A DNA stretch of 64,000 nucleotides from Candidatus Levyibacteriota bacterium (GTDB taxonomy: Bacteria > Patescibacteriota > Microgenomatia > Levybacterales > UBA12049): contig JBBRCK010000002.1 of the NCBI GenBank assembly GCA_038205015.1, positions 33,913-97,912 of the forward strand, read 5' to 3'. Shown piece by piece: positions 1 to 27,333 of this stretch. The notes beneath the pieces are model-generated. The model did not search any database and had not been told where the DNA came from. It was given only the letters and a program-made list of their open reading frames with translations. Position numbers and translations under genes: made by a program. Positions within the stretch are counted from its first letter, which is position 1. Every line of letters begins with the position of its first letter.

Positions 1-1163
1 ACATACCCTGCAAGCATAGATGTACAAAAGGATACTAAAATAAGAAGTCTTGTAGAGAATTGCGCAAGATCTAGAGTTGGAATTATTGACCAGATAGGCC
101 GTGAGATTGGAGTTAATAAGAATAATAAGATAGAAAATAAGGATAACCAAAATATAATAAAAGTTTTATATTTTAATTTAACTTTATTGGTTAATATTGC
201 AATTATAGAAAGAGTAACTACAGCCAATTGAGTGTATCCAATAACATAAGATAACTCGCCGTTTGGTCCTTGAAATAGAAATCCAAATCTCCATGGGGAA
301 TAAAATAATTGCCAAAAAGGTACAAATATAATCGCAGAAGTGATGCTTTTATGATAATTTGTAAACTGTAATAACAATATGTCTGCAATCCAAGCATGCA
401 TAGAAAGAATTATGCCTATTGTTGCAGTTAACAGTAGGTATTTAATAATTTGTATTTTGTTTTGATTTTTCCAGATTTTAAAATAAATATATGGAAGAAT
501 AATCAATCCAGCAAAAACAGTTGAAGGAGAGTGAGCGAGATATGATAAATATAGTATTACTCCGGTCCAGATAGACAGGAGTAAACTTTGTTTATCAATA
601 ATTTTTTTAAAACAATATAGTAAAAGAGGAATAAAAAGAAAACCGGCGATTTCTCCGCCTGTTGCACGAAAATGTAAATTAACTAAATGATAAGGAGAAA
701 ATAAATAAAATGTTGCTGCGACGAAAGCAGCTTTTTTATCTTTGAATTCTTCGAATGCAAATTTAAACATTACTATTCCAGAAAGAATAAAACATGATCC
801 TAAAAATATTTTCATGCTGTCAATAAAAGAAAATCCAATAATATGTAAAAATGAAACAAAGTAATATAGAAGTACATAGCTAAAAATAAATAACGGATAT
901 CCATAACTACTATTTAAATCTCCGCCCCATGATGGAATCAATTGTCCATCTTTTAAATTATTGTAAAAAGACATTGCATTTCTAATATGAATGTTAAAAT
1001 CACCACTTTCATAATCTCCTGGTCTAAAAATGCTTACAATAGGTAAAATAGATATTAAAATAAGTAGGACAAAAAAATTAATCTTTTTCTTTGGGAAAAT
1101 ATATTTATAAATTATAGTTCCAGTCAAAAGTAAACCAGATAAAACTAAATTTATAAAAGCCAT
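1..1163 (-). CDS. Partial polytopic membrane protein, YfhO/GT-C-like putative glycosyltransferase. The N-terminus is at 1163 and the C-terminus runs off the window start.
   Basis: Not in the ORF track. Manual reverse-strand translation from ATG 1163..1161 gives at least 387 codons with no stop (MAFINLVLSGLLLTGTIIYKYIFPKK...HIRNAMSFYNNLKDGQLIPSWGGDLNSSYGYPLFIF...). It is multi-TM, and its R..N...P.W...G.P loop motif resembles the YfhO-like protein at 20482-22863. Confidence 0.5.
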   Translation of the reverse strand, partial: MAFINLVLSGLLLTGTIIYKYIFPKKKINFFVLLILISILPIVSIFRPGDYESGDFNIHIRNAMSFYNNLKDGQLIPSWGGDLNSSYGYPLFIFSYVLLYYFVSFLHIIGFSFIDSMKIFLGSCFILSGIVMFKFAFEEFKDKKAAFVAATFYLFSPYHLVNLHFRATGGEIAGFLFIPLLLYCFKKIIDKQSLLLSIWTGVILYLSYLAHSPSTVFAGLIILPYIYFKIWKNQNKIQIIKYLLLTATIGIILSMHAWIADILLLQFTNYHKSITSAIIFVPFWQLFYSPWRFGFLFQGPNGELSYVIGYTQLAVVTLSIIAILTNKVKLKYKTFIIFWLSLFSILLFLLTPISRPIWSIIPTLDLAQFSTRLLILVSFCTSMLAGY

Positions 1164-1216
1164 TCTATGGAGATCAAACATGATGATATAATAGCTTTGT
1201 AAATTTATAATATCAA

Positions 1217-1663
1217 GTGAAATTATTGTTTATGAAAAAAGTATTCTTGAGTTTATTTTTTCTATGGATTATTTTAAGTATTTTAACTTTGCCTTATAAT
1301 GCTTTAAATACGGTTTTAGATATTAAATCATGGTTTTTTTTAACAGATAACCAAAAAAGAGAAAAGATCTTCGGGGATACATATGATTATATTTATTTTA
1401 TAAATTCAAAAACACCAAAAAATTCAAATATCTATATATTTTCAAAAGATGGTAAAATTGGTTTAATTGCAAGATATTTCCTTTATCCCCGCAAGCTCTA
1501 TGTGACTAAAGATGATAGTAATTTAATTAATCTTTTAAAGCATGAATCCTTTGATTATATTTCTCTTTATGATAAAGAGAAAATAATACAAAATTATAAA
1601 TTATTTGCTAAATATCAATCAAAAACTACATTTCATTTTGGAATAATTTATAAGAAAATATGA
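1217..1663 (+). CDS. Hypothetical membrane-anchored protein with an N-terminal TM helix and a soluble domain.
   Basis: 148-aa ORF with a hydrophobic N-terminus. Its stop overlaps the next gene's start (ATGA at 1660). Confidence 0.35.
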   Translation: MKLLFMKKVFLSLFFLWIILSILTLPYNALNTVLDIKSWFFLTDNQKREKIFGDTYDYIYFINSKTPKNSNIYIFSKDGKIGLIARYFLYPRKLYVTKDDSNLINLLKHESFDYISLYDKEKIIQNYKLFAKYQSKTTFHFGIIYKKI

Positions 1664-3024
1664 TTGACATAATTTTAACTTCGTTAGCAATATCTTTTGT
1701 TGCATTATTAGGATTTTCAATAATCAAATATTTTAGCTTATGGTCGGAAGCGGATAATCTTTCAATTGCTGCAGTTTCTTATGGTTTAGGTGTTGGGCTC
1801 ATTTCTATGCAGTTGTATATTTATTCCAGAATCGGCTTGCAGTGGAGTAGAGAATTAATAATGTTTCCCTGGTTTATGCTTATGCTATTTGTTTTTATAA
1901 ATAATATACATAGCCTATCTAAATTCAAAATCCCTAAGTTTAATATTACTTCAGGAATTAATCTTATCCTTTTGTTTTTTATTATTGCAGCAGCGAGTTA
2001 TACTTTTTTTGAAGCTTTAATTCGTCCGGTTAGCGTTTGGGATGCTGTAGCGATTTGGATGAACAAATCAAAAATCTTTTATTTTGACCAAAGCATAACG
2101 ACTAATCTGCTATATTTATTTGATTTTGGTTATCCGTTGGTAGTTAGTTTATTTGGAACTTTTATATATATAATTCTGGGTCACATAAATGATTCCGCAG
2201 TGCTTTTGACTTCGTTTGCTTTTTACTTTTTTACGGCTCTTTTATTATTTTCCACTATTAAGAAAAGATTTGGTTTAACATATGCATTAATTTTTACTTT
2301 TCTTTTTGTTACAACTCAAAATTTTGTTAGGCATGGTGGGAGAATGGAGGCAGGTCAAGCTGATCTACCGCTTGGGTATTATACTTTTGTTTGCCTAATA
2401 TTGCTCTTAGATTATTTTAAACAAAATAAAGCTAAATTACTGTCACTTCTCTCAATATATTTGGGAATTACTGGACTTATAAAATCTGAAGCTCTATTTA
2501 TTACTATTGCGATTGTAATTCCAATTATATATCAAATTTATAAAACTAAGCATTATAACCATTTAATTATTCTCTTCTTTTGGGTTTTACCAATAATTGA
2601 TTGGCAGCTATACAAAAACGATATAGCTAAGCCGCCTAATTTTTACCCGTTTTATCAAAACATCCTATCCTGGCAAAGAGTGGTTAATACTTTATTAGGA
2701 ATGGTAAAAGAGTTTATAAATATAAAAAGCTGGAATATGCTTTGGATAGTGTATTTTTATTCTTTCTTAATAGTAAAAATAAAGAATAAAAAGGAATTAA
2801 TAATTATAAATACAATTATACTTTCACAAATCTTTATATATTTTTTAATTTATATTTTAAATTCTGCCTTTAATCCAGAAAGTTCTGCCGAAAGATTATA
2901 TGTTCATATTGCACCATTAGTTTTCTTCTATCTTGCAATAGTTTTCTGGAAATTAATAGACTTAAAAGATTTAAGAAAAAGCATTATGTTACTCTTTTCT
3001 AAAGTTAGTTCATTATTTAATTAA
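1660..3024 (+). CDS. Polytopic membrane protein, putative GT-C/YfhO-like glycosyltransferase.
   Basis: 454 aa with many TM helices. Loop motif RPVSVWDAVAIW...DFGYPL resembles the other GT-C-like paralogs in this window. Confidence 0.4.
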   Translation: MIDIILTSLAISFVALLGFSIIKYFSLWSEADNLSIAAVSYGLGVGLISMQLYIYSRIGLQWSRELIMFPWFMLMLFVFINNIHSLSKFKIPKFNITSGINLILLFFIIAAASYTFFEALIRPVSVWDAVAIWMNKSKIFYFDQSITTNLLYLFDFGYPLVVSLFGTFIYIILGHINDSAVLLTSFAFYFFTALLLFSTIKKRFGLTYALIFTFLFVTTQNFVRHGGRMEAGQADLPLGYYTFVCLILLLDYFKQNKAKLLSLLSIYLGITGLIKSEALFITIAIVIPIIYQIYKTKHYNHLIILFFWVLPIIDWQLYKNDIAKPPNFYPFYQNILSWQRVVNTLLGMVKEFINIKSWNMLWIVYFYSFLIVKIKNKKELIIINTIILSQIFIYFLIYILNSAFNPESSAERLYVHIAPLVFFYLAIVFWKLIDLKDLRKSIMLLFSKVSSLFN

Positions 3025-3050
3025 AGAATGTTATAATTCCAACCACTATT

Positions 3051-5642
3051 ATGGTTAAGGTAAGAGCAACATTAATTTGCACAATATTTAACGAAGAAAA
3101 AAACATTGAAAGCTTCATAAAATCTATTGCAAAGCAAACAGTTATTCCAAACGAAATTATTATTGTGGATGGCGGAAGTAAAGATAATACAGATGTTGTA
3201 CTTAAGAGATTAATAGAAAAATATGCCAACAAACTTAAGATAATATTTTTACAAAAGATGGGAAATAGGTCTATTGGCAGAAATGAGGCAATCAAAAATT
3301 CTTCTAACGAAATAATTCTTTGTACCGATTCGGGAAATTTATTGGATAAAAACTGGGTAAAAGAAATTACCAGACCCTTTTCTAATAAAAGGGTAGAAGT
3401 TGTAGCAGGATACTATAAAGGGATTGGAAAGACAGCGTTTGAAAAATGCATGATTCCTTATGCTCTCGTAATGAAAGAAAGGATAAATAAGAATAATTTT
3501 TTACCTGCAACAAGGTCTATGGCATTTAAAAAAAATATTTGGAAAAAGGTAGGTGAATTCAATGAAAAATTTTCTCACAATGAAGATTATGATTTTGCAA
3601 ACAAACTTAAAAGTAGGAATGCAAAAATTGTATTTACAGACAAAGCGATTGTAAGTTGGTTTCCTAGAAGAAATTTAAAGCAGGCATTTGTTATGTTTTT
3701 TAGGTTTGCTTTTGGTGACGGAGAATCAGGGAATTTGCGAGAAAAGGTGTTATATATATTCTTAAGATATTTTTTGTTATTTTATTTGCTTTTTCTTGAT
3801 TATTTATACAAATCTAAAATTTTATCGATAATTATTAGTTTAGGAGTTGTAGCTTATCTGTCTTGGTCTATTGCAAAAAATACTAAGTATATAAATGACT
3901 CAAAAAAATATTTTTTACTTCCTCTAATTCAATTGACATCTGATATTGCAGTAATGGTTGGTACGAGTTTGGGGGTTATAAAGCGTGTTATTAATTTAGA
4001 TTTTAAAGCTGTGTTTTTACATAATAAGGGGTTATTTTTTATCTTAATTGTTTATATATTAACAGTTTTGTCTTCAATTACGTGGGGTATTCCAAATCAG
4101 AATCACCCATTTTTATACCATATGGATGAATGGCATCAGCTTCAATCTGTAAGGTTTGTTTTTCAATATGGAAGTCCAAATTTTCAAGCATCTGCGAACG
4201 GACCTATGTTTCATTTCTTTCTCTCAGGAATTTATCTTTCCCCCTTTGTTTTACTAAAAATTGTAAATCCTTTCACAATAAAATCTGCTATAGATGCGAT
4301 AAACATGCAACATTTAATATTTATTATTCTTCGTTTGAATACCTTATTGTTTGGTGTACTAACTTTACTTACTATTTATAAGACTTCAAAGATTTTAAAA
4401 ATTAAATCAATGCTTCCAATTGTATTACTTGCATTTACTCCGGTTTGGATAATGTTAAGCAATAATTTTAAGTATGATATTGCACTTACGTTTTGGCTGA
4501 CATTTTCAATATATTGTTTTTTAAGATACTTTAAAAACCCTATAATTCATAATTTAGTTTTACTTTGTATCGTATCTGCATTGACTCTATCAGTTAAGGT
4601 TACGGGAATTCCACTTATTGGATTAATTATTGTAAGTTTCTTTTTATTTTCCAATAATCCTTTTAATAGGATAAAAGATTTAGTTATTGGATTAATTTCC
4701 TATTTTTTGATTGTAATTTTCTTTGGAATTCCGGATATTATATTTAATGGAAAAAGTATTTATGAATATTTATATTCAAATTTAACTTTAACAGCTAATT
4801 TGTCAAATTATGTTAAAACTGGATACTCCACTTTTTCTTTTATAATGTTACATAATTTTCCTACAATTTTTGGCCATCCATTATTTTTATTGTTTTGCTT
4901 ATCGCTTATCTACTTCTTAAAATTAATACGTGAAAGCGTAATTAATAAAGAAAAGATTTATAAATTTTATTTAATTATATTGTTGTACTTTATTATTTTT
5001 ATTTTTAGTTTTTATCCGATTATTAATTTGGGACCATCAGCAAACAGAGTTTTAGTTATATTACCCGCAATGGTGTTAATAATAGCTATCTCAGTAAGCG
5101 AATTTATTAAAAACTTGAGTGGTAACAAGAAAATATTAGTGATTTTTATACTATTTATTTGTATTTTTTTACAAATTTTTGAAACTTATTGTTGGGTTTT
5201 ATTAAAACATACTCCTGCTCCTCAAGAAACATCTTCTTCCTGGGTTTTAAAAAATATAAAACCATATACTACAATAGGTTTAGAAAATATACCTTTATAT
5301 CAAAAAGAACCTGACATTGTTCTAAAAGAATTTTATAATAAGCAGTATAAAACGAATTTGAAATTAAAATATAATTATCAAATTGTAGATTACAATACCA
5401 AAAATCTTCCGGAAGTAATAATTGTATCGGACGTGAAATTATCAGAGGAGTCTGAGAGAAATACCTCGAAAATTAATCTTATAAATAAATTAAATAAGGA
5501 AAATTATAAAATTATTACTACCTTTTCGCCAGCTTTAAATTTTTATTATTTTTTTGGTAATACATTTAATTTTGTTTCATCTGGTCTTATAGCATATCCG
5601 GGAGATATTACAATTTTTAAGAAAAATAACATGCAGAATTAA
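3051..5642 (+). CDS. Fusion protein: N-terminal GT2 glycosyltransferase (polyprenyl-phosphate sugar synthase-like) joined to a C-terminal PMT/ArnT-like GT-C membrane glycosyltransferase.
   Basis: 863 aa. N-terminus LICTIFNEEKNIESFI...IIIVDGGSKDNT...CTDSGN is GT2-like. About 14 TM segments follow, carrying a DE loop motif (YHMDEWH), with a C-terminal soluble domain. Confidence 0.6.
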   Translation: MVKVRATLICTIFNEEKNIESFIKSIAKQTVIPNEIIIVDGGSKDNTDVVLKRLIEKYANKLKIIFLQKMGNRSIGRNEAIKNSSNEIILCTDSGNLLDKNWVKEITRPFSNKRVEVVAGYYKGIGKTAFEKCMIPYALVMKERINKNNFLPATRSMAFKKNIWKKVGEFNEKFSHNEDYDFANKLKSRNAKIVFTDKAIVSWFPRRNLKQAFVMFFRFAFGDGESGNLREKVLYIFLRYFLLFYLLFLDYLYKSKILSIIISLGVVAYLSWSIAKNTKYINDSKKYFLLPLIQLTSDIAVMVGTSLGVIKRVINLDFKAVFLHNKGLFFILIVYILTVLSSITWGIPNQNHPFLYHMDEWHQLQSVRFVFQYGSPNFQASANGPMFHFFLSGIYLSPFVLLKIVNPFTIKSAIDAINMQHLIFIILRLNTLLFGVLTLLTIYKTSKILKIKSMLPIVLLAFTPVWIMLSNNFKYDIALTFWLTFSIYCFLRYFKNPIIHNLVLLCIVSALTLSVKVTGIPLIGLIIVSFFLFSNNPFNRIKDLVIGLISYFLIVIFFGIPDIIFNGKSIYEYLYSNLTLTANLSNYVKTGYSTFSFIMLHNFPTIFGHPLFLLFCLSLIYFLKLIRESVINKEKIYKFYLIILLYFIIFIFSFYPIINLGPSANRVLVILPAMVLIIAISVSEFIKNLSGNKKILVIFILFICIFLQIFETYCWVLLKHTPAPQETSSSWVLKNIKPYTTIGLENIPLYQKEPDIVLKEFYNKQYKTNLKLKYNYQIVDYNTKNLPEVIIVSDVKLSEESERNTSKINLINKLNKENYKIITTFSPALNFYYFFGNTFNFVSSGLIAYPGDITIFKKNNMQN

Positions 5643-5699
5643 AGAATGAGAACTAATATAGATTATGATGTTATTCTTTGTTAAAATACTATATGTTTT

Positions 5700-6230
5700 A
5701 TGAAATTTACTAAAACTTTTATTTCTGGATTAATTGTTATTGAATTTGATAAATTTGACGACGAAAGAGGATATCTTGCTAAATTTTTTGACAAAGAAAC
5801 CTACAAAAAAAATAATATTAAATTAGATTTAACACAGGTAAAATATTCTTCTACTAAGAAAAAAGGTACTATTCGTGGGCCACATATGCAATTCAAGCCT
5901 GATGAGGAAGCAAAAATAGTTCATTGTTTGAAGGGAAGAATTTTCGATGTGGTTTTGGATTTGAGGCCAAAATCAAAAACATACGGAAAATGGTTTGGAG
6001 AAGCTATGTCAGATAAAAATAAAAAAAGTTTATACATACCAAAAGGACTTGCCCATGGTTACCAAACTTTAACTAATGACTGTGATGTTTTGTATATGAT
6101 GTCCGGGCATTTTTCTAAAACAAATTATGTTGGTGTTAGATGGGATGATCCACATTTTAATATTACTTGGCCTTTAAAACCTACTTTGATTGCAGAAAAA
6201 GACCTTAAGCGGCCATTGTTTAATAAATAG
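5700..6230 (+). CDS. rmlC: dTDP-4-dehydrorhamnose 3,5-epimerase.
   Basis: 176 aa cupin. Motifs GIRGPHMQF, LKGRIFDVVLDLR and KSLYIPKGLAHGYQTL are typical of RmlC. Confidence 0.85.
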   Translation: MKFTKTFISGLIVIEFDKFDDERGYLAKFFDKETYKKNNIKLDLTQVKYSSTKKKGTIRGPHMQFKPDEEAKIVHCLKGRIFDVVLDLRPKSKTYGKWFGEAMSDKNKKSLYIPKGLAHGYQTLTNDCDVLYMMSGHFSKTNYVGVRWDDPHFNITWPLKPTLIAEKDLKRPLFNK

Positions 6231-6232
6231 TT

Positions 6233-7099
6233 ATGATTGATTTACTAATTATTGGGAAGGACGGGCAGCTTGGTAAAGCGTTTGTGAAAGCCTCGAGAGA
6301 ACAAAAACTTAGCTTCAAGGCATATTCAAAAGACGAACTTGATATCACAAAAAATTTACACGTAGAAAAAATACTAAAGAAAATTAAGCCAAAAATTATT
6401 ATTAATACCTCTGCATTTCACGTTACCGCGCTTTGTGAAAAGAAACCCCTTGATGCATTTAAAGTTAATTGCATAGCAGTTTCAAATTTGGCAAAATTGG
6501 CTAAAGCAGTTAATGCGAGATTTGTTACCTATAGCACAAATTATGTATTTGATGGTAAAAAAGGTCAACCATACTTTGAAAACGATATTGTAAACCCACT
6601 GCAAATGTATGGATTAAGTAAGCTTGCAGGAGAAATGTCAGCTTTAAATGAATATCCTAGTGGAACTTACATCATAAGAACTTGCGGAGTTTACGGAGGA
6701 GGGTATTCGGGTAGCAAAAGTAAAAAAGGGAATTACGTTCTAAAAATTTTAAATGAAGCAAGGACTAACGAAGTAATACGCGCAAGTACTAAGCAAATTG
6801 TAAATCCAACATATGCCGGAGATTTAGCGAAATACTCAATAAGTTTATTGAAATTAAATCCAAAGCCAGGTATATATCACCTTGCTAGCGAAGGTTTTTG
6901 CAGTTGGTACGACTTTGCAAAGAAAATACTGGAATATAAAAAAATTAATGTAAAACTAATTCCGTTTGAAAGTAATGAAGAAAATATAAATTTTCAAAGT
7001 CCACTTTTTTCAGCTCTTCAAAATAGTAAAGCTAAGAAGCTTGGAATTGTTTTACCAAGTATAGAAGATGGATTATTTAAGTATCTGGTAGAAATTTAA
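6233..7099 (+). CDS. rmlD: dTDP-4-dehydrorhamnose reductase.
   Basis: 288 aa SDR. Motifs IINTSAFHVTALCEKKPLDAFKVN, YSTNYVFDG and YGLSKLAGE are typical of RmlD. Confidence 0.85.
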   Translation: MIDLLIIGKDGQLGKAFVKASREQKLSFKAYSKDELDITKNLHVEKILKKIKPKIIINTSAFHVTALCEKKPLDAFKVNCIAVSNLAKLAKAVNARFVTYSTNYVFDGKKGQPYFENDIVNPLQMYGLSKLAGEMSALNEYPSGTYIIRTCGVYGGGYSGSKSKKGNYVLKILNEARTNEVIRASTKQIVNPTYAGDLAKYSISLLKLNPKPGIYHLASEGFCSWYDFAKKILEYKKINVKLIPFESNEENINFQSPLFSALQNSKAKKLGIVLPSIEDGLFKYLVEI

Positions 7100-7101
7100 G
7101 T

Positions 7102-7338
7102 ATGAAGAAAATAATTTTTTATACGACTATTTTGTATTTAATCTTTTTGATTATTTTTAGATTTTCTTTTAGATATTTTAGAACTTTTTTTCTTCCTCCG
7201 GAAATTTCAGGATTTAAAATAGTCGGTTATTCTCAGTACTTTGGGTATCCATTCTATTATGATACTGTAGTATTTTTTCTTTTAGTTTTAGTTCCAAGTT
7301 TAATATTTTTAATCTTTATGCTGCACCATAAGAAATGA
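7102..7338 (+). CDS. Small 2-TM membrane protein, hypothetical.
   Basis: 78 aa with two hydrophobic helices. Translationally coupled to the flanking genes. Confidence 0.3.
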   Translation: MKKIIFYTTILYLIFLIIFRFSFRYFRTFFLPPEISGFKIVGYSQYFGYPFYYDTVVFFLLVLVPSLIFLIFMLHHKK

Positions 7339-9275: not shown

Positions 9276-9279
9276 TTTT

Positions 9280-10038
9280 ATGAAAAATGCAAATATAAAT
9301 GTAATTATTCCCTCATATAACGAATCAAAAAATGTTCCAGCAGTAATTCGTGGTATTAGAAATGAGTTTCCGGAAGTAAGGATAATTTTTGTTGATGATT
9401 CAAATAAAGCAGAAAATAAAAAACTTAAAGATGTTATTTCAAAATTTGAAAATACAGATTTAATAACAAGAGGAAAGAAGCTTGGTAGGGGAAGTGCGGT
9501 AATGGATGGTTTTAAATTCGGATTAAAATATAAAAAGGCACAATATTTTTATGAAATGGACTCCGATTTAGCACATGAACCGACACATTTAAAAAGATTT
9601 TTGCAAAAAATTAAAGAGACTAATGCTGGCCTTGTTATAGGGTCACGCTATATGACAGGTGGAAGAGTTGTAGGTGTATCAATTTCCAGAAGAATTTTAA
9701 GCAGAATAATAAATAGATTTTTACGTATAATGTTAGGCTTTAAGCTAACTGACTACACAAGTGGTTATAGGCTTTATGGTAGAAGTGCTGTTGAGTTTCT
9801 TGTAAAATCTAAATTGAAATCAACCGGTTTCATTGCGCTTTCTGAAATATCCTATAAGCTTCATAAAAATAAATTTATGATCAAAGAAGTACCGGTAACC
9901 ATTTCTACTAGAAAATTTGGAAGGTCAACTATGGGTATAAAAGAATTGCTGAATTCACTAATATTTGTAATAAAAATGAAATTTGAGGAAGAAATACTAA
10001 ATATGTTTTATGCAAAACATTCTCATTACAAAAAATAG
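9280..10038 (+). CDS. GT2 polyprenyl-phosphate sugar synthase (DPM1/GtrB/CsbB-like), soluble form.
   Basis: 252 aa. Motifs IIPSYNESKN, FVDDSN, DSDLAHEP and GSRY..GG are GT2/DPM-like, and there is no C-terminal TM. About 50% identical to the paralog at 16852-17601. Confidence 0.75.
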   Translation: MKNANINVIIPSYNESKNVPAVIRGIRNEFPEVRIIFVDDSNKAENKKLKDVISKFENTDLITRGKKLGRGSAVMDGFKFGLKYKKAQYFYEMDSDLAHEPTHLKRFLQKIKETNAGLVIGSRYMTGGRVVGVSISRRILSRIINRFLRIMLGFKLTDYTSGYRLYGRSAVEFLVKSKLKSTGFIALSEISYKLHKNKFMIKEVPVTISTRKFGRSTMGIKELLNSLIFVIKMKFEEEILNMFYAKHSHYKK

Positions 10039-17601: not shown

Positions 17602-17602
17602 G

Positions 17603-18847
17603 TTACCTAATATAGGGTGTTGGTATCGGAATTATAAATTTCCCCCCGTTCTTTATAAACTCTTTTTCTTTTTGAATTATTTTTTCTGCGTAATTCCAAA
17701 CAAGTAACAGATAATAATCAGGCTTTTCTCCTCTTTTTATTTCCTCTTCTTGAGAAATAACCTCAATATGCTTTCCCGGACTATATAAACCGTATTTGTA
17801 AGGTGTTTTGTCAACAATATAATCAAGATAGTTAGTTCCGATATTGCAATAATTAAGTAAGGTATTTGATTTGGCAGATGCACCGTACCCAGCTATTTTT
17901 TTATTTTGGCTTTTAAGATCTTTTAACAGTTGGACAAGTTTTATTTTAATATAATTAACTCTAGCTTGAAATCCAAGATAAGTATTTATATTTGTTATAC
18001 CCATATGAATTTCATTTTCAATTGCATTTAAAAGTCTATTTTCAATTTTTTGTTTACCTTTATGAGCGACAAATAATCTTATAGAGCCGCCTTGAGTATT
18101 ATGTTCCTCCACGTCAAATGCTTCCAAATCAAATTGTTCTAACAGTTTAAGCAGGGGATAAAGTGAAAAAAAAGATTGGTGCTCATGATAAATGTTATCG
18201 AATTGATTATTAAATAATAGATACGGAAAATATTGACACTCAAAGATAAAAACACCATTTTCGTCAAGTAAATACTTAATTCCGGATATAAAATCATATA
18301 AATCATTAACATGAGCAATAACGTTATTTGCAATAATTATTCCTGCTTTGCCGGCATTTGTTACCACATCATTGGCAGACCGTTTATTAAAAAAATCGTT
18401 AATTGTCGGTATGCCATTAGCATTAGCCGCATCGGTAACATTTTTTGCAGGATCAATCCCTAAGGCCTTATAGCCTTTAGTGATAAATGGTTTTAGCAGT
18501 GTGCCATCATTACTGGCTACCTCGACAACAAATTGTTTAGATTGTTTTGGAAACCTCTGCATAACAGCCTCCGCGTATGCCTCAAAATATCCAATTGATG
18601 CAGGAGATCCTCCAGTATAGAATGCATAATCTTGCCCGAACAAAAGCTTAGGATTTACTTCATCAACGAGTTGAACTAAAAAACATTTTGGACAAACTTT
18701 TACATCTAAAGGAAATTTGTGTTCCTTGTCTTTTACGTTTTTAACAAATAAATCTGCGAGAGGAGTTTTATCAAGGGTTATAAAATTAAATAGTTTTTTA
18801 TGTTTGCAAATCCTGCAAGTGGTTCTAATACTTACTAAACTATTCAT
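17603..18847 (-). CDS. NDP-hexose C-methyltransferase (TylCIII-like) with an N-terminal zinc-ribbon, a class I SAM MTase domain and a C-methyltransferase C-terminal domain.
   Basis: 414 aa. N-terminal CRIC...CPKC zinc finger, then SAM-binding VVEVASNDGTLL. The C-terminal domain matches the sugar C-methyltransferase family. It is the only minus-strand gene inside the plus-strand cluster. Confidence 0.65.
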   Translation of the reverse strand: MNSLVSIRTTCRICKHKKLFNFITLDKTPLADLFVKNVKDKEHKFPLDVKVCPKCFLVQLVDEVNPKLLFGQDYAFYTGGSPASIGYFEAYAEAVMQRFPKQSKQFVVEVASNDGTLLKPFITKGYKALGIDPAKNVTDAANANGIPTINDFFNKRSANDVVTNAGKAGIIIANNVIAHVNDLYDFISGIKYLLDENGVFIFECQYFPYLLFNNQFDNIYHEHQSFFSLYPLLKLLEQFDLEAFDVEEHNTQGGSIRLFVAHKGKQKIENRLLNAIENEIHMGITNINTYLGFQARVNYIKIKLVQLLKDLKSQNKKIAGYGASAKSNTLLNYCNIGTNYLDYIVDKTPYKYGLYSPGKHIEVISQEEEIKRGEKPDYYLLLVWNYAEKIIQKEKEFIKNGGKFIIPIPTPYIR

Positions 18848-18931: not shown

Positions 18932-18937
18932 TATAAT
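18932..18937 (+). promoter_or_regulatory. -10 box TATAAT, 7 nt upstream of start codon 18945 (leaderless-type).
   Basis: Sequence aagTATAATattacccATG. Confidence 0.3.
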
Positions 18938-18944
18938 ATTACCC

Positions 18945-20528
18945 ATGAATAAAAAGAAAAAAATTCTTGCCGCATTATTTGTATTCGTGTTTGCTTTTTT
19001 ATTGCGCTTATGGAACTTAAATTCAATGGGAAGGACTTGGGACGAGACTGCATATGTTGAGGTTGGAAATAAAATGATCCAGTTAATTTTGAATAAAAAC
19101 ATATTTAATAGTTATTTTTATCATTTTACAGATGCTCCACCACTGGCAAGATATTTATTTGGAATTGCAAGTAATTTAGATATTAAAAGTATAATTGGCG
19201 GTATTCCTGTCTTTAATTATGAATATACTTATGCACGGTTAATATCGATAATATTTTCTTCTTTCTCATCAGTAATTGTTCTATTTATTGGGATTGAGTT
19301 TATTTCCGTCTTTGTAGGAATAGCGGCAGCAATTATTTTGGCAATGCTTCCGTTTTTTCTTGGATTATCACAGTTAGCCACTTTAGAAAGTACTTTATTT
19401 TTCTTTTTTACACTCTCTGTTTATTTATACCTGAGATTTTTGAGAAAGCCATCGAAATTAAATGTATTTTTAACTGGTTTTGCAATTGGTTTAGCGATTT
19501 TATCAAAGTATACGAATGTGTTATTAATTCCTGTAATTTTAGGAATATATTTCTTTTGGAATAAAGAAATAAAAGATAAATTATCCAAGATAATTTTAAA
19601 ACAAACACTATATATGTTTGTGATTGCAATCCTTACATTTATTATTGCTTGGCCAATGCCATGGGCAAATTTAAGTTATGTAATTGGTTTTAACTATAAC
19701 TGGAGGGTGATGGGAAATTTGCAGCCTGACATTGAAGTTTTTTATGGAAGATTAATGCATCTTCCTGTATTTTATTATCCCGTAATGTTTTTAATAACAA
19801 CCCCGTTAATAATCGTATTATTATTTTTTATCGGTTCCAAATTTATTTCGGATTATACCAGTAAAAAGGAAATTGCTAAGAAAGCTAAAGAGAGTGGATT
19901 TGTTAGTTCAAAATGGTTTTTGTATTCACTTCTTGCATGGTTTTGCATTCCATTTATTCAATCATTTTATAATTATCGCCATCATGGAATCAGATTTATT
20001 ATAGAAATTTACGCACCTTTATCAATAATTGCTGCAATCGGATTAAATTGTATATCATCAAAGTTTTCCAAAACCTTGATGGCTCGTATATTGTTTTTAT
20101 TTGTAGTAATTATATATTTAGCTATATCTCTTATTAAACTTACTCCCTATTATTTAGATTATTATAATGGTTTGGTTGGGGGAACAAATGGCGTTTATAA
20201 AAACAGACTTTTTGAAATTGGTTGGTGGGGACAAGGGCTTGGAGAAGCAGGTTATTATTTACAAAATTACGCAAAACCTAATTCTAAAATAGGACTATTT
20301 ATTTCTCCAACAAGTGTGTTCCCGCCAATTAAAAATCAAAAGATAATGTTAATAGATCCGGTTAGGGGAGTATATGATTCAAAAATTAAATACGATTATG
20401 TTGTTGTAAATTACTTTCATGTCTTAAGAGAAAGATTCGATGACAGTAAAATTAAAGGGGACTACAAACTAATACATACAGTTAGCGCTGACGGCGCGGT
20501 TTTAGTTTATATATACCAAAAAATTTAG
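18945..20528 (+). CDS. PMT/ArnT-like (GT39/GT83-type) polyprenyl-phosphate-sugar-dependent membrane glycosyltransferase.
   Basis: 527 aa. The first loop carries the DE motif (GRTWDETAYVEVG) typical of the PMT_2/ArnT family, followed by about 11 TM helices. Confidence 0.6.
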   Translation: MNKKKKILAALFVFVFAFLLRLWNLNSMGRTWDETAYVEVGNKMIQLILNKNIFNSYFYHFTDAPPLARYLFGIASNLDIKSIIGGIPVFNYEYTYARLISIIFSSFSSVIVLFIGIEFISVFVGIAAAIILAMLPFFLGLSQLATLESTLFFFFTLSVYLYLRFLRKPSKLNVFLTGFAIGLAILSKYTNVLLIPVILGIYFFWNKEIKDKLSKIILKQTLYMFVIAILTFIIAWPMPWANLSYVIGFNYNWRVMGNLQPDIEVFYGRLMHLPVFYYPVMFLITTPLIIVLLFFIGSKFISDYTSKKEIAKKAKESGFVSSKWFLYSLLAWFCIPFIQSFYNYRHHGIRFIIEIYAPLSIIAAIGLNCISSKFSKTLMARILFLFVVIIYLAISLIKLTPYYLDYYNGLVGGTNGVYKNRLFEIGWWGQGLGEAGYYLQNYAKPNSKIGLFISPTSVFPPIKNQKIMLIDPVRGVYDSKIKYDYVVVNYFHVLRERFDDSKIKGDYKLIHTVSADGAVLVYIYQKI

Positions 20529-22863: not shown

Positions 22864-22912
22864 GAACGTAGTATAGCAAATATGATTATTAGAGAAAAAT
22901 ACAATTTTAAGT

Positions 22913-22918
22913 TATAAT
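22913..22918 (+). promoter_or_regulatory. -10 box TATAAT, 6 nt upstream of ATG 22925 (leaderless-type).
   Basis: Sequence gtTATAATttggttATGctt. Confidence 0.3.
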
Positions 22919-23689
22919 TTGGTTATGCTTTCCGTTGTAATACTCACAAAAAATGAAGAAAAAAATATAATTGATTGTTTGGAGAGTGTTTCTTGGGCCG
23001 ATGAAATATTGTTAATAGATGATTATTCAACAGACAGAACAATTGAGGTTACCAAGAATTTTGATTTAAATAAAAAGGTCACCATAATTAAAAAAAGGCT
23101 TGATAATGATTTTTCTTCTCAAAGAAACTTTGGTATCTTAAAAGCAAAGTATGATTGGATATTATTTGTAGATGCTGACGAAAGAGTAACAAAAGAGCTT
23201 AGGGAAGAAATACATTTGGTTTTAATTAGCGAAAAAACAAATCCTGCTTTTTATGGATTTTATTTATCAAGAAAGGACGTTATGTGGGGTAAAATGATTA
23301 AACATGGAGAAATGGGTAGTATAAGACTTTTAAGATTAATAAAAAAGGGAAGTGGTAAATGGAAAGGAAAAGTACATGAGCAGTTTATCGCAGAAAAAAG
23401 AGTTGAAGAATTAGAAAACGGACTATTGCATTTTCCACATCAATCAATCAGTGATTTTTTAACCGAAATTAATTTTTATACGAGTATAAGATCTAAAGAA
23501 TTGTTTAACTTAGGAGTACAGACTAATATTTTACAAATCATATTTTATCCAATGGCTAAATTTATTATGAATTATTTAGTAAAACAGGGAATTAGAGACG
23601 GTACTGAAGGTTTAATCTTGGCAATTATAATGAGTTTTCACTCCTTTTTAGTAAGAGGAAAGCTATGGATATTATGGCAAAAAAAATAA
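22919..23689 (+). CDS. Glycosyltransferase family 2 (LPS-core/KdtX-like).
   Basis: 256 aa. Motifs LSVVILTKNEEKNI and LIDDYSTDRT are GT2. The track start is TTG at 22919. The biological start is more likely ATG 22925, giving MLSVVIL. Confidence 0.7.
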   Translation: MVMLSVVILTKNEEKNIIDCLESVSWADEILLIDDYSTDRTIEVTKNFDLNKKVTIIKKRLDNDFSSQRNFGILKAKYDWILFVDADERVTKELREEIHLVLISEKTNPAFYGFYLSRKDVMWGKMIKHGEMGSIRLLRLIKKGSGKWKGKVHEQFIAEKRVEELENGLLHFPHQSISDFLTEINFYTSIRSKELFNLGVQTNILQIIFYPMAKFIMNYLVKQGIRDGTEGLILAIIMSFHSFLVRGKLWILWQKK

Positions 23690-23765
23690 TATATTTTATT
23701 TTTCTGCTCTGGTCGTTTTTTGTTCTCTACAACTATTTTTCTTATATTTTATGTAAAGGAGGATT

Positions 23766-25343
23766 GTGTTTGCATTTGCTTTTTTAACTGGTATATATTC
23801 ATACATTATTTTTTTTCTAGGAATATTTGGACAGCTATATAGAAATTATGTGCTAGTTTCTTCTGTAATTTATGTATTATTAGTATTGATATTATTTAAA
23901 AATTATCCAAAGGTATTAGCAATTAAACTCTATAAAAAAACATCCATTGTTAAGGAAGCTTTAAAAAATAGATTGTCATTAGTTTTAATAATTCTATTAA
24001 CAGTTCAAATTTTGATCAATTTTATAGGAGTCTTGGGACCTGAAGTATCCTTTGATGCGCTTTGGTATCATCTTACTTTACCAAAGCTGTATATTCTAAA
24101 TCATTCAATTTTTCATATTTCCGGTGGTCTTTTATATTATTCAGATATGCCAAAGTTAGTAGAAATGCTTTATGTACCATTTCTAATGTTTGGAAATGAA
24201 ATTGGCGCAAAATTTCTGCACTTTGTTTTCGGAATACTAGTTTTGTTTATATTATATATAATTTCTATTAGGTTTTTGTCTAAAAATTTATCATTATTAG
24301 TTTTGATTCTGTTTTATTCAAATTTAGTTGTAGGTTGGGAATCTATTACAGCTTATGTAGACTTAGCAAGAACATTTTTTGAACTACTTTCATTTTATGG
24401 ATTTATTATCTGGTTTAAAAATAGGAATAGTAAGTATTTATTTTATTCTGCGATTATTTTAGGTTTTGCAATAACAGTAAAATTAGTAGTTATATTTGAT
24501 TTACTAATTTTCTTATGTCTATTTGTATATTTAAAGAAAGACATTTTTAAAAACATAATTCAGTTTAGTGGCATTTCTTTGTTAATTCCTTTACCTTGGT
24601 TTATATTCTCATATTTAAATACCGGCAACTTATTTTATCCATATTTTAGTTTACCTGTTGATTCCGGACATTTTCTTAACATGCCAACGTTGTCCTCGCT
24701 TATAAATTTCTCAGATCCAATTTCGCCAATTTATTTAATTTTACTTCCTATTATTTTATTAAGTTATAAACAATTTGATAAGAATACAAAGTTGATTTTT
24801 ATTATGTTTATTACTGGAATTTTAATATGGTTTTTGACTCAAACCGGGAGAGGAACAAGATTTTTGCTTCCCTATCTTCCATTAGCATCAATTTTGTGTA
24901 TTCTCATTATTCAATCATTTAAAAGTATAATTATAAAAAAATATTTGTATGTATTAATTATTATTATTTCATTAACTTCAATTGGGTACAGATTAATTGC
25001 GAATATTAAGTTTTTACCCGTTGTAATCGGAAAAGAATCGAGAGAGTATTTTCTTACTAATCATTTAAATTTTTCTTTTGGAGATTTTTATGATGTAGAT
25101 GGATATTTTAAAAATAACATTCAAAAATCCGATAAAGTACTTTTATATGGATTTCATAATTTATATTATGTAAATTTTCCATACATTGATTCAAGCTGGG
25201 TTAAAAAAGGAGATAAGTTTAATTATATTGCAGTTCAAAATGCAAATATTCCGGATAGATTTTTAGATTGGAAAAAAGTTTATTACAATAATCAAACAAG
25301 AGTTGGACTATACTCAAAGGAAGCAATAATATGGGAATACTAG
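23766..25343 (+). CDS. Polytopic membrane protein, GT-C-like.
   Basis: 525 aa with about 13 TM helices. GTG start preceded by SD aaaggagga at 23752-23760. Confidence 0.4.
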   Translation: MFAFAFLTGIYSYIIFFLGIFGQLYRNYVLVSSVIYVLLVLILFKNYPKVLAIKLYKKTSIVKEALKNRLSLVLIILLTVQILINFIGVLGPEVSFDALWYHLTLPKLYILNHSIFHISGGLLYYSDMPKLVEMLYVPFLMFGNEIGAKFLHFVFGILVLFILYIISIRFLSKNLSLLVLILFYSNLVVGWESITAYVDLARTFFELLSFYGFIIWFKNRNSKYLFYSAIILGFAITVKLVVIFDLLIFLCLFVYLKKDIFKNIIQFSGISLLIPLPWFIFSYLNTGNLFYPYFSLPVDSGHFLNMPTLSSLINFSDPISPIYLILLPIILLSYKQFDKNTKLIFIMFITGILIWFLTQTGRGTRFLLPYLPLASILCILIIQSFKSIIIKKYLYVLIIIISLTSIGYRLIANIKFLPVVIGKESREYFLTNHLNFSFGDFYDVDGYFKNNIQKSDKVLLYGFHNLYYVNFPYIDSSWVKKGDKFNYIAVQNANIPDRFLDWKKVYYNNQTRVGLYSKEAIIWEY

Positions 25344-26524
25344 AAAAATTATTTATTTTATTTATATTTACCTTTCCCACCGGCGTAATTGCCAGGCTTC
25401 AATTTTCAAATGGACTTGCAATCTCTATAAATGATTTAATATTAATGATTTTAATTCTCTTTTGGGTATTTTATAGAATAAAACTCAAATCTTTTGAAGG
25501 CAAATATTATTTATCAAAACCGATTGGAATATTTATTTTTCTGGGATTATTTTCTTTAATATTAAATTTTCCAAATCTTGGATTTGATAAATTCTTAATA
25601 TCATTTACTTACCTTGCAAGGTTTATTGGATACGCATTGTTATATTTTATAGTAAAAGATTTTACAAACTCTTTTAAAATTAAGATTAACAAATATTTAT
25701 TAATTTCTGGATTAATAGTACTGATATTAGGTTATATTCAATATTTTTTTTACCCGAGTCTTAAGAGCTTATCATTTTTAGGTTGGGATATTCATCTATA
25801 TAGAATGGTTTCGGTATTTCTTGATCCAAATTTTGCTGGAACATTTTTTAATATTTATTTAATTTTTTCCTTAGAGTTTTTCCGAAAAAGATATAAAAAA
25901 TTATCAAAGGTTAAAATATCGCTTTTTTTATTAATCCCAATATTTACACTTTTTTCAATATATTTGACATATTCAAGAAGCGCACTAATTATGTTATTTA
26001 TTTGTACGGCTACGTATTTAATCCTACTTAATAAAAAGAAATTAATAATAATTTCTACAATTGTTCTTTTTCTGTTAATTTTTATTTCACCTAGGGCTTT
26101 TCAAACAGAAGGTACTAATTTATTAAGAATAGTTTCAACTACTGAAAGAATACAATCTGTCCAAATAGTAACTAAAGTAATTTCAGCAAATCCGTTATTC
26201 GGAGTAGGTTTTAATGCTTATAGGTATGCTCAGAATAAGTTAGGATTAGACAACGTTTATTGGCAAGTTACTCATGCCGGAGCAGGAACTGACGCAAGTC
26301 TCTTGTTCGTAATTGCAACAACCGGTTTTATAGGTTTACTAGCTTTTCTTTATTTAATCTATAAATTATTATATCTCGCAAAGTTAAATCTAAATAAAAA
26401 CGGAATTATACTGTTTTCAGTATTGGTTGGCTTGTTGGCTAACAGTTTATTTATAAACAGTTTTTTCTTTGTTTTTATATTAGAGTGGATTTGGATACTC
26501 TCCGGCGTTACTGAGAATAGTTAA
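25331..26524 (+). CDS. O-antigen ligase/polymerase family (Wzy_C) membrane protein, possibly an O-oligosaccharyltransferase.
   Basis: 397 aa with about 10-12 TM helices. A periplasmic loop carries YSRSALIML and HAGAGTDAS, resembling the Wzy_C/WaaL/PglL family. Confidence 0.5.
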   Translation: MGILEKLFILFIFTFPTGVIARLQFSNGLAISINDLILMILILFWVFYRIKLKSFEGKYYLSKPIGIFIFLGLFSLILNFPNLGFDKFLISFTYLARFIGYALLYFIVKDFTNSFKIKINKYLLISGLIVLILGYIQYFFYPSLKSLSFLGWDIHLYRMVSVFLDPNFAGTFFNIYLIFSLEFFRKRYKKLSKVKISLFLLIPIFTLFSIYLTYSRSALIMLFICTATYLILLNKKKLIIISTIVLFLLIFISPRAFQTEGTNLLRIVSTTERIQSVQIVTKVISANPLFGVGFNAYRYAQNKLGLDNVYWQVTHAGAGTDASLLFVIATTGFIGLLAFLYLIYKLLYLAKLNLNKNGIILFSVLVGLLANSLFINSFFFVFILEWIWILSGVTENS

Positions 26525-27218
26525 CTTTTAGGTCTTTTTCCGTTTTATTACCAGCTTGATCGGTTGCTATGATTTTAATTTGATTATCTCCGCCTTGGAG
26601 AGATAAGTTATAAGAAAAGTTGTTGCTGTAATCAATTATTGCAGAGAATCCATTAACAGTAACGCTTACTCCGAAATCCACTTTTCCAGTTACATTAGCT
26701 GTATTTTGATCTTTTTTAAAGCTTTGTCCATCAGAAGGAGAGTTTACATCTAGTGACGGTGGAGAATTTTTAAATATGACGTCAACATTATTTGAAAAAC
26801 TACTCTTTTTATCGTTAATTTGCGCATTTACTTTAATTTGATTATTTCCGCTTGAGAGATTCTCGTTAAATACAAATGCTCCATCACTATTTGCTTTGAC
26901 ATCGTCGACCTCCTTATTATTGATATATAAATAAACTTTGGCGTCCTTTTTAGATTTGCCTGCTATAACTATTTGAGCACTGTTTGTAGCCGTTGGAAGT
27001 TGATTTAATACGGGTGTATCTAAGAAGATGATTTTATCTCCGCTTACCGAGTTTGTGCTTTGTGTTTTTTGTCCTGTTAGAAACAGACTAAAGTTGACTA
27101 AAAAATCCAAGCCAAATTTAAATAAGATAAAAAGTATCATTACGATTCCAATTATGCTTAAAGCAATTGTTTTTCTTGTTTTCTTTTCTGTATTTTTATT
27201 AAGTCTGGAACGTCTCAT
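26508..27218 (-). CDS. Membrane-anchored surface protein with two Ig-like (Big-type) repeats.
   Basis: 236 aa with a basic N-terminus and a single TM helix. Two beta-rich N/S/K-rich repeats follow (…GNNQIKVNA… and …GDNQIKIIATDQAGN…). Its start codon lies 4 nt from the tRNA-Thr 3' end. Confidence 0.4.
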   Translation of the reverse strand: MRRSRLNKNTEKKTRKTIALSIIGIVMILFILFKFGLDFLVNFSLFLTGQKTQSTNSVSGDKIIFLDTPVLNQLPTATNSAQIVIAGKSKKDAKVYLYINNKEVDDVKANSDGAFVFNENLSSGNNQIKVNAQINDKKSSFSNNVDVIFKNSPPSLDVNSPSDGQSFKKDQNTANVTGKVDFGVSVTVNGFSAIIDYSNNFSYNLSLQGGDNQIKIIATDQAGNKTEKDLKVNYSQ

Positions 27219-27222
27219 AATG

Positions 27223-27295
27223 AGCCGAAGGTGAGATTTGAACTCACGACTTACTCTTTACGAAAGAGTTACTCTACCAGCTGAGTTACTTCGGC
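27223..27295 (-). tRNA. tRNA-Thr (anticodon CGT).
   Basis: Manual cloverleaf on the reverse strand. Acceptor GCCGAAG/CTTCGGC, D-arm ACTC-AGCTGGTA-GAGT, anticodon stem ACTCT/AGAGT with loop TTCGTAA, T-arm GTGAG-TTCAAAT-CTCAC, discriminator T. CCA is not encoded. Confidence 0.8.
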
Positions 27296-27333
27296 ATTAG
27301 TATATTCTATGAAATTTTATCTATCAAGGCAAA

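Follow-up and report, generated by a model that had tools for sequence, protein, structure and literature searches.

Bacteria are already known to have multi-component systems of transmembrane glycosylation, rhamnose cell-wall polysaccharides, and surface-glycan loci that are hypervariable. In the lactococcal Wps system, a glycosyltransferase of family 2 (GT2) that resembles DPMS and has no transmembrane segments builds the whole repeat unit on undecaprenyl-phosphate-linked N-acetylglucosamine (C55-P-GlcNAc), Wzx flips the repeat unit, and membrane glycosyltransferases of the GT-C type polymerise and transfer it (PMC10821137). In this study, we analysed a 64-kb stretch of DNA (hereafter the window), the first 27 kb of which are a variable cell-surface glycan locus of Candidatus Levybacteria (Microgenomates, Candidate Phyla Radiation (CPR)). 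Judged by analogy, its closest relative in function would be the rhamnose cell-wall polysaccharide machinery of Gram-positive bacteria (GacIJKL, Wps). With moderate confidence, we read the locus as a Wzx/Wzy-type glycan pathway combined with extracytoplasmic GT-C steps that would be fed by polyprenyl-phosphate sugars according to the GacIJKL/Wps logic. This involves no new principle, as the logic fits the multi-component transmembrane glycosylation of Gram-positive bacteria.

The window contains 58 open reading frames (ORFs) of at least 100 amino acids, and all ORFs listed in the original prediction, an earlier annotation of this DNA, were found at their positions. Genes are densely packed from position 1 to 27218, and every ORF of this island is intact; the left window edge cuts the island, so that 27 kb is its minimum size. 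The G+C content of the island is 27.3% compared with 33.8% in the remainder of the window, which consists of housekeeping genes (dnaE, gatBA, murT/gatD, pyrG, uvrB, lexA, eno, and others). Named homologues of the island proteins belong to Candidatus Levybacteria or other Patescibacteria. Eight of the 22 island genes encode GT-Cs compared with one of the 33 genes elsewhere in the window (Fisher p = 0.0017), and GT-C domains occupy 48% of the island bases. Relative to the rest of the window, the unusual GT-C density claimed by the original prediction was thus recovered.

All nine membrane proteins that had been flagged as glycosyltransferases are GT-Cs by hidden Markov models (HMMs), homologues or predicted fold, and none of them is transporter-like. 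Each is polytopic with about 7–12 hydrophobic segments in a Kyte-Doolittle scan. Five of them (genes 3051, 14703, 18945, 20482, and 47106; genes are called by their first position in Table 1) passed the Pfam cut-offs for GT-C families. For the window-edge fragment encoded by gene 1, no Pfam match of its own was obtained; blastp relates it to the island's YfhO protein (E 1e-5), and its full-length homologues in two related loci (L002:5216-6988, E 1e-81; L070:1516-3381, E 1e-77) scored above the cut-offs for PMT_2 (29.2 bits) and PTPS_related (31–34 bits). Gene 23766 itself matches PMT_2 weakly and below threshold. It has more than 1398 homologues, and among the 120 listed, which are 49–58% identical, nearly all carry PF13231 or PF02366 and the named ones are called GT39. 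The GT-C-fold family of gene 7335 comprises 1169 cluster representatives at E ≤ 1e-3 and has no match in the Pfam and NCBIfam copies searched. PDB sequence searches with 1660 and 7335, as single sequences and as profiles, gave nothing useful. By hhalign, the families without a Pfam match were weakly linked to the PMT_2-bearing family (E 9e-5, probability 59%; E 4.5e-4, probability 33%), and no link was found between families A1 and A2; it took a fold comparison to settle these families. The [FW]D motifs of three GT-C families were aligned with each other by hhalign. Some members of the 7335 family (P0244, P0276, P0318, P0323, P0335) have 115–240 extra N-terminal residues, which are hydrophobic and transmembrane-like in the three members read. 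The idea that these extensions represent a fused GT2 or the fused 78-amino-acid partner described below was dropped, as they gave neither a Pfam match nor convincing similarity.

The loop motif, whose absence, like that of the GT-C fold, would have refuted the original prediction, was found in all seven families for which alignments were available, i.e. all except those of gene 1 and the GT87 gene 47106. An acidic residue following a transmembrane segment is invariant or at least 90% conserved in each of them: D33-E34 (18945), D359-E360 (3051), D295 (14703), D39 (20482), D44 (7335), D97 (23766), and D128 (1660), the membrane side being derived from hydropathy. D97 is part of the motif SFDALWYHLTLP, which is invariant in the 23766 family. 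Detectable BLAST similarity among the GT-Cs was limited to two pairs, and the proteins fall into at least six divergent families, several of which are portable cassettes. The proposed expansion of paralogous transferases was not borne out by this result, and a recent burst of paralogues was ruled out as their origin.

Two of the GT-Cs are fused to a GT2 domain. The protein encoded by gene 3051 consists of a cytoplasmic GT2 (GT-A fold), a transmembrane hairpin, the GT-C domain (PMT_2), and a C-terminal tail without predicted transmembrane segment; its conserved D359-E360 follows the third transmembrane segment. In the second fusion protein, for which NCBIfam gave a rhamnosyltransferase-like match below cut-off, D295 is conserved in 50 sequences. 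Since three (3051) or one (14703) transmembrane segments lie between the cytoplasmic GT2 and the acidic loop, the hydropathy-based topology places this loop outside. We also considered GtrB/DPMS-like GT2 halves, but the sequences speak against them and match TarS, TarP, GalT1, PgaC, and WbbL-like enzymes; in the PDB, the GT2 half of 3051 hit TarS, TarP, and GalT1, whereas neither DPMS nor ArnC was matched. By sequence, both GT2 halves resemble ordinary nucleotide-sugar enzymes of the GT-A type and not polyprenyl-phosphate sugar synthases, although the architecture of 3051, a GT2 followed by a transmembrane hairpin, is still GtrB-like. Fusions like 3051 were found again in many related loci and fusions like 14703 in most of them. 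A literature search for GT2::GT-C fusions found no paper.

The two soluble GT2 proteins that had been predicted to make polyprenyl-phosphate sugars (genes 9280 and 16852) indeed resemble DPM1, DPMS, and ArnC according to PDB and NCBIfam, and we regard them as candidate polyprenyl-phosphate sugar synthases. They are 52% identical (blastp E 1.5e-84), and neither has a transmembrane segment, a trait also reported for WpsA and GacI (PMC10821137). Against the PDB, the protein of gene 9280 matched DPMS of P. furiosus (E 1.6e-18) over residues 4–239, i.e. the whole catalytic domain, as well as ArnC (E 8.8e-11). The best NCBIfam models for both proteins were PpgS, AglJ, ArnC, and PgfS, all far below their equivalog cut-offs. 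Both contain a motif of the DxD-L-x-H type (MDSDLAHEP / MDSDLAQNP), which we take to be the "DADLSHHP" region of DPM1. Each of the two genes is located directly downstream of a GT-C gene, with 9280 starting 5 nt past the end of 7335, and in the related loci 15 of 21 DPM-like GT2 genes are found within 300 bp of a GT-C gene. This neighbourhood indirectly supports the use of polyprenyl-phosphate-linked donors by the putative GT-C partners.

Synthases of this group attach to the membrane by helices of their own (GtrB, ArnC, DPMS) or by means of a small membrane partner (GacJ/WpsB, DPM2/3). In the window, small membrane proteins accompany the GT-C genes and not the synthase genes. A 78-amino-acid ORF, which was below the length limit of the first ORF list and therefore absent from the original prediction, overlaps the start of gene 7335 by 4 nt (7335–7338). 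According to tblastn it is conserved in related loci (50–63% identity in L002, L003, L004, L036, L040, and L058; 37% in L080), and its homologue lies directly upstream of the 7335-family gene in L002, L003/L004, and L040. It has no Pfam match, and GtrA (PF04138) was not detected in it. Likewise, homologues of the 148-amino-acid protein encoded by gene 1217, for which no Pfam or NCBIfam match was found, immediately precede 1660-family genes in L046, L065, and L073. Their position makes both proteins candidate small subunits of the adjoining GT-Cs.

For identification of related loci, a contig scan with the single 7335 protein returned no relative, while a scan of species-representative genomes with the family of the anchor GT-C 23766 yielded 194 stretches encoding a relative. 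The best 80 loci were mapped and almost all of them are from Levybacteria. About 60–77 Levybacteria species have the locus beside tRNA-Thr and the atp operon. About 40 loci having long flanks show a conserved backbone with variable cassettes. In its left part, the order is 3051-like fusion, (DPM-like GT2), (C-methyltransferase), Wzx, GT4, and 14703-like fusion; in its right part, 22919-like GT2, 23766-like GT-C, Wzy_C, and a convergent gene with a Big domain. Homologous ORFs in the related loci number 65 for the GT2 gene 22919 and 77 for the Wzy_C gene, which directly follows the anchor GT-C in most mapped loci, and the Big-domain gene is present in 72 loci. Beyond the latter gene, atpD follows at a distance of 0.45–5 kb in 57 of these 72 loci, and a tRNA is located within 400 bp of it in 19 of them.

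The 10 kb flanking the anchor gene on each side contain a median of 3 recognised GT-Cs (mean 3.4, maximum 6; n = 42). These counts are underestimates, because the commonest unassigned ORF families include more PMT_2 proteins as well as polytopic families without Pfam match. Three such families (L011:8140-9912, present in 13 loci; L053:8487-9992; L059:6698-8164) have 10–12 hydrophobic segments, in two of the three, the first transmembrane segment is also followed by an acidic motif, and all three are candidates for further unrecognised GT-C families. Several cassettes are carried only by some of the genomes, namely gene 1660 with the gene of the 148-amino-acid protein, gene 7335 with the 78-amino-acid ORF and often a DPM-like GT2, the convergent PMT/YfhO pair of genes 18945 and 20482 (the same pair occurs in L064 and L065), and the GT87 gene, a homologue of which lies inside the locus in L028, L045, L050, L057, L065, and L073. 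The window thus contains an enlarged form of a locus that is typical of the lineage, lies at a fixed site, and varies in its cassettes; it is no one-off island. The claim of an unusually GT-C-dense island stands for bacteria in general, for which the density is high, but not for the Levybacteria lineage, where it is normal and recurs at the same site in dozens of species.

Accessory genes of the relatives also point to the kind of sugar involved. Up to three paralogues of the nucleoside-diphosphate (NDP)-hexose C-methyltransferase were found in one locus (L002, 7003-8259, 12728-13966, and 14957-16222), and methyltransferases dependent on S-adenosylmethionine are the commonest accessory family, present in 22 loci. 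This gene content suggests that Levybacteria glycans carry heavily methylated or branched sugars. Loci of the Levybacteria type were also encountered in TPA_asm records titled "uncultured Gammaproteobacteria" (L005, L007, L010, L057, and others) and in one titled "Methanosarcinales archaeon"; they share 45–55% identity with the anchor protein, and the titles of these records seem to be placeholders or erroneous taxonomy.

The remaining genes of the locus (Table 1) would supply nucleotide sugars and a glycan export pathway. For rmlC, rmlD, Wzx, two GT4 genes, one further GT2 gene, the C-methyltransferase, and Wzy_C, the original assignments were confirmed mainly by Pfam. The flippase reached 202 bits with the NCBIfam model of the MOP flippase family, below the cut-off of 273, and is TuaB-like. 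Gene 12559 had been called a tyvelose-epimerase-like member of the short-chain dehydrogenase/reductase (SDR) family; this identity was given up, since the RmlB-like model of dTDP-glucose 4,6-dehydratase scored best (TIGR01181, 190 bits, below the cut-off of 365). The C-methyltransferase indicates a branched-chain sugar. The backbone GT2 22919 matched GmaR (E 5.5e-16) and SunS (E 2.3e-9) in the PDB. No PDB match was obtained for the Wzy_C protein, which by its family would be a polymerase, a ligase, or an enzyme of the O-oligosaccharyltransferase type.

Table 1. Features of the glycan locus and its surroundings (positions in the window; aa, amino acids).
Feature	Position	Strand	Evidence and remarks
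GT-C (PMT_2/PTPS_related-like)	1..1163	-	N-terminal 387 aa in window, gene continues past left edge; ~8 hydrophobic segments
148-aa protein	1217..1663	+	One N-terminal transmembrane segment; overlaps start of GT-C gene 1660
GT-C, divergent PMT_2-like family, 454 aa	1660..3024	+	
GT2::GT-C fusion protein, 863 aa, backbone gene	3051..5642	+	GT2 68.8 bits; PMT_2 35.4 bits (cut-off 26.1)
RmlC, dTDP-4-dehydrorhamnose 3,5-epimerase	5700..6230	+	Pfam dTDP_sugar_isom 183.5 bits
RmlD, dTDP-4-dehydrorhamnose reductase	6233..7099	+	Pfam RmlD_sub_bind 223.9 bits
78-aa ORF	7102..7338	+	Both ends hydrophobic, interpreted as 2 transmembrane segments
GT-C-fold glycosyltransferase, 646 aa	7335..9275	+	Transmembrane domain and C-terminal mixed helix/strand domain of ~250 aa
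GT2, polyprenyl-phosphate sugar synthase-like (DPM1, DPMS, GacI/WpsA type)	9280..10038	+	No transmembrane segment
Wzx-type MOP flippase	10086..11330	+	Pfam Polysacc_synt_3 221.6 bits
GT4 (GT-B fold), cytoplasmic	11317..12513	+	Pfam Glycos_transf_1 107.7 bits
SDR-family NDP-sugar dehydratase/epimerase, RmlB-like	12559..13581	+	Pfam GDP_Man_Dehyd, Epimerase
GT4, cytoplasmic	13582..14685	+	Pfam Glycos_transf_1 84.9 bits
Second GT2::GT-C fusion protein, 723 aa, backbone gene	14703..16874	+	GT2 71.1 bits (WbbL/GlfT1-like); PMT_2 36.6 bits
Second DPM1-like GT2	16852..17601	+	No transmembrane segment; 23-nt overlap with end of fusion gene 14703
NDP-hexose C-methyltransferase (TylC3-type)	17603..18847	-	Methyltransf_14 182.6 bits, Methyltransf_13 63 bits
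PMT/GT39-like GT-C	18945..20528	+	Pfam PMT (PF02366) 55.3 bits, PMT_2 48.4 bits; D33-E34 after first transmembrane segment
YfhO-family GT-C, 793 aa	20482..22863	-	Pfam YfhO (PF09586) 80.5 bits (cut-off 28.5)
GT2, conserved backbone gene	22919..23689	+	Pfam GT2 74 bits; GmaR/SunS-like over N-terminal half
Anchor GT-C (PMT_2-bearing family annotated GT39)	23766..25343	+	Kept across Levybacteria loci
Wzy_C-family protein	25331..26524	+	Pfam Wzy_C 50.7 bits; ~10 hydrophobic segments; 13-nt overlap with end of anchor GT-C
Membrane-anchored surface protein, Ig-like (Glucodextran_B/Big) domain	26508..27218	-	Pfam Glucodextran_B 66 bits; right-hand end of locus
tRNA-Thr (CGT)	27222..27295	-	ARAGORN; marks right border of locus, atp operon next
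atp operon	27334-33335	-	Directly right of tRNA-Thr
GT87 (PimE/DUF2029-like) GT-C, separate	47106..48263	-	20 kb outside island; Pfam GT87 94.6 bits

From homology and gene order, we propose the following working of the locus. In the cytoplasm, RmlC, RmlD, the RmlB-like SDR, and the C-methyltransferase would provide dTDP-6-deoxyhexoses including a C-methyl-branched sugar. At the inner membrane face, an oligosaccharide would be assembled on polyprenyl phosphate by the GT4s and the free GT2 together with the GT2 halves of both fusions; Wzx would flip it, and the Wzy_C protein would polymerise or ligate it. In parallel, the two DPM1/GacI-like GT2s would make polyprenyl-monophosphate sugars, and the divergent GT-Cs would use these sugars outside by means of their acidic loop residue, either adding side chains or transferring the glycan to its acceptor. 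By exchanging GT-C cassettes, each with a small partner gene or a synthase, strains could diversify their surface.

This proposal rests on the GT-C identity of the membrane proteins, their loop acids, the adjacency of synthase and GT-C genes, the conserved backbone at a fixed site, and the low G+C content. The component list of a four-component system is present contiguously and on the same strand, comprising rmlC, rmlD, the 78-amino-acid ORF, the GT-C 7335, the DPM-like GT2 9280, and Wzx 10086, and Wzx together with Wzy_C qualifies the locus as a Wzx/Wzy-type pathway. The original prediction had favoured the CsbB-YfhO logic of Firmicutes. One part of it fits, as each synthase-like GT2 gene directly follows a GT-C gene and a YfhO protein is present; the other part does not, as no GtrA/GtcA was found and Wzx is the only flippase. 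This absence, together with the presence of Wzx as sole flippase, Wzy_C, and the GT4 and GT2 enzymes, led us to prefer the four-component/Wzx-Wzy model over CsbB/GtcA/YfhO.

The scanned window ORFs of at least 100 amino acids, from which four ORFs nested in longer, annotated ones were left out, contained no phosphoglycosyltransferase, GtrA (PF04138), or DUF2304 protein. In agreement with the original prediction, an initiating phosphoglycosyltransferase is thus missing there, and none was present among the ten commonest accessory families of the related loci either; a chain-length regulator was likewise not found within the 64-kb window. According to the GacIJKL/Wps logic, in which the repeat unit is built on C55-P-GlcNAc, a phosphoglycosyltransferase would be unnecessary in the locus. 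Initiation on a monophosphate carrier would be one explanation for its absence, and an unlinked WecA/TagO would be an equally simple one.

Several points weigh against the proposed pathway. A GacJ/WpsB-like (DUF2304) or GtrA-like partner was not detected by Pfam in the window, and rmlA was not found there, the RmlB call being below cut-off. Two synthases are insufficient for eight GT-Cs, so that most donors must come from elsewhere or must be diphosphate-linked glycans. Finally, a phosphoglycosyltransferase may be encoded elsewhere, in which case the pathway would be of the conventional Wzx/Wzy kind and use a diphosphate carrier; in E. coli, wecA is unlinked to the O-antigen loci (rfb clusters). 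Possible acceptors are a wall polymer, protein, or a lipoglycan, which are not mutually exclusive.

The nature of the acceptor leads to the best-placed alternative, namely that proteins are the main target of the locus, for example pilins, an S-layer protein, or the adjoining Ig-like surface protein. We give this a real but clearly minor chance. Here, the PMT/GT39-like GT-Cs would O-glycosylate Ser/Thr from polyprenyl-phosphate sugars, comparable to actinobacterial Pmt and the GT39 of C. bescii, and Wzy_C would be an O-oligosaccharyltransferase of the PglL/WsaB type which transfers the Wzx-flipped glycan onto protein. The protein of gene 18945 fits this description, as it has a PMT domain with the loop-1 Asp-Glu (D33-E34) expected of protein O-mannosyltransferases, its acceptor being putative, and the C-terminus of the YfhO protein 20482 weakly matches PgfM1, a GT-C of protein glycosylation in S. 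mutans. The Wzy_C family includes protein O-oligosaccharyltransferases, and in Geobacillus and Paenibacillus the clusters for S-layer glycans contain rml genes together with a transferase of the Wzy_C type. Furthermore, a conserved Ig-like surface-protein gene closes the locus in 72 relatives, and glycosylation of secreted proteins in C. bescii needs GT39 (PMC6151902). However, neither NCBIfam nor the PDB yielded a match that would group the Wzy_C protein with PglL or WsaB. We know of no protein O-glycosylation system that uses eight divergent GT-Cs. Protein glycosylation is also compatible with the Wzx/Wzy and GT-C pathway proposed above.

Alternatively, a polymer or lipoglycan might arise outside the membrane as the GT-Cs add one monosaccharide after another from polyprenyl-phosphate donors, with each GT-C forming one linkage type, as modelled by the Emb, Aft, Mpt, and PimE enzymes of mycobacterial arabinogalactan, lipoarabinomannan (LAM), and phosphatidylinositol mannosides (PIMs). 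Many divergent GT-Cs alongside DPM-like synthases are in line with such an assembly, as is the PimE-like GT87 gene of the window with its homologues inside the locus of some relatives, and a PIM-like pathway was proposed for a Saccharibacteria genome (PMC6031116). We nevertheless consider stepwise assembly unlikely, since Wzx, Wzy_C, and several cytoplasmic GT4/GT2 enzymes suggest a pre-assembled lipid-linked oligosaccharide, and genes for decaprenyl-phosphate arabinose/ribose synthesis (the three-component system starting from phosphoribosyl pyrophosphate) were not seen. That the clustering is incidental or the genes are decaying, with unrelated membrane and sugar genes not cooperating, is barely credible: GT-C families are difficult to distinguish functionally and the low G+C content could partly stem from AT-rich codons of hydrophobic membrane proteins, but the gene order is kept across dozens of species-level genomes, the genes are closely spaced, their start and stop codons overlap, and the ORFs are intact with conserved catalytic-loop residues.

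The genomes of CPR bacteria measure about 1 Mb, and an attached life on other cells is assumed for these organisms. Levybacteria spend at least 13 kb of one locus on GT-Cs at a fixed, hypervariable site. This marks the surface glycan as a major trait, which probably defines strains and bears on host attachment and phage evasion. As a tentative and rather improbable extension of the proposed pathway, Levybacteria and perhaps other Microgenomates might carry out most of the assembly of their main surface glycoconjugate outside the membrane by a lineage-specific machinery, which would include fusions coupling cytoplasmic and extracytoplasmic steps, Pfam-less GT-Cs dependent on small subunits, and swapping of cassettes that varies the surface for host attachment and phage recognition. 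The fusions would then combine cytoplasmic and extracytoplasmic transfer, or synthesis and use of a donor, in one polypeptide. A literature search combining CPR or Patescibacteria with GT-C, PMT, or ArnC returned nothing specific. Four features appear to be undescribed in the literature searched: the extent to which a CPR genome is loaded with GT-Cs, the GT2::GT-C fusions present throughout the lineage, the Pfam-less GT-C family, and its 78-amino-acid partner.

Further observations were made outside the island. A DedA/VTT-domain membrane protein is encoded at 53170-53796 (-). For members of this family, a role in recycling (flipping) undecaprenyl phosphate has been proposed, and such a role would be important to a cell with many GT-C reactions. 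The protein of the stand-alone GT87 gene reached 80.9 bits with the NCBIfam mannosyltransferase model PRK13375, below cut-off. This gene overlaps convergently with a gene for a LysM-repeat protein (46563-48263), and the pair is flanked by tRNA-Asp (46368-46443) and tRNA-Gly (48307-48378). An 86-nt tRNA-Lys called by ARAGORN (40475-40560, +) lies inside a His_Phos_1 ORF (40074-40730, -) and is probably a false positive. Unrelated to the glycan locus are a putative phage metallopeptidase (PF18894) beside an RNaseH-like protein (61136-62073, -) and a GH5 cellulase-like gene (62106-63245).

Compared with known systems, the locus combines features of several. It shares many divergent GT-Cs and polyprenyl-phosphate sugar synthases with the mycobacterial set (EmbA-C, AftA-D, PimE, Pmt; PpgS with Rv3779); PpgS is the best NCBIfam match of the small GT2s of the window, which also contains a GT87 gene. 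In mycobacteria, however, these genes are dispersed across a genome of 4.4 Mb, an arabinose/galactofuranose donor pathway is missing here, and there is no sequence-level orthology. With E. coli rfb and Geobacillus slg, it has in common a low-G+C hypervariable sugar locus at a fixed site with rml, GT2/GT4, Wzx, and Wzy_C, and with rfb also the lack of an initiating enzyme in the locus, whereas Wzx/Wzy clusters for O-antigen, capsule, and S-layer normally contain no or one GT-C. Like in the GtrA/GtrB/Gtr* and CsbB/GtcA/YfhO systems, which glycosylate O-antigen, lipoteichoic acid (LTA), and wall teichoic acid (WTA), a synthase-like GT2 gene adjoins a GT-C gene and a YfhO member is present; unlike there, a GtrA/GtcA domain is missing and a Wzx/Wzy-type pathway is part of the locus. 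Also, GtrB and CsbB have a C-terminal transmembrane hairpin, which the DPM1-like GT2s of the window lack.

The GacIJKL system of Streptococcus pyogenes and WpsA/B-WpsG-WpsJ (+WpsH/I) of Lactococcus, which serve the assembly of rhamnose polysaccharide side chains and of the pellicle (PMC10821137), differ from the locus in several respects. Here, GacJ/WpsB (DUF2304) was not detected, eight GT-Cs are present instead of one to three, two of these are fused to GT2, and neither the rhamnan ABC transporter RgpCD nor TagO is in view; the host belongs to the CPR, and sequence similarity is at the superfamily level only. What the locus would share with these systems, going by its genes, is a DPMS-like GT2 without transmembrane segments, a Wzx-type flippase, GT-Cs acting outside, rhamnose-pathway genes in the locus, cytoplasmic glycosyltransferases able to extend a monophosphate-linked sugar, a polymerase-like membrane protein, and strain-variable content.

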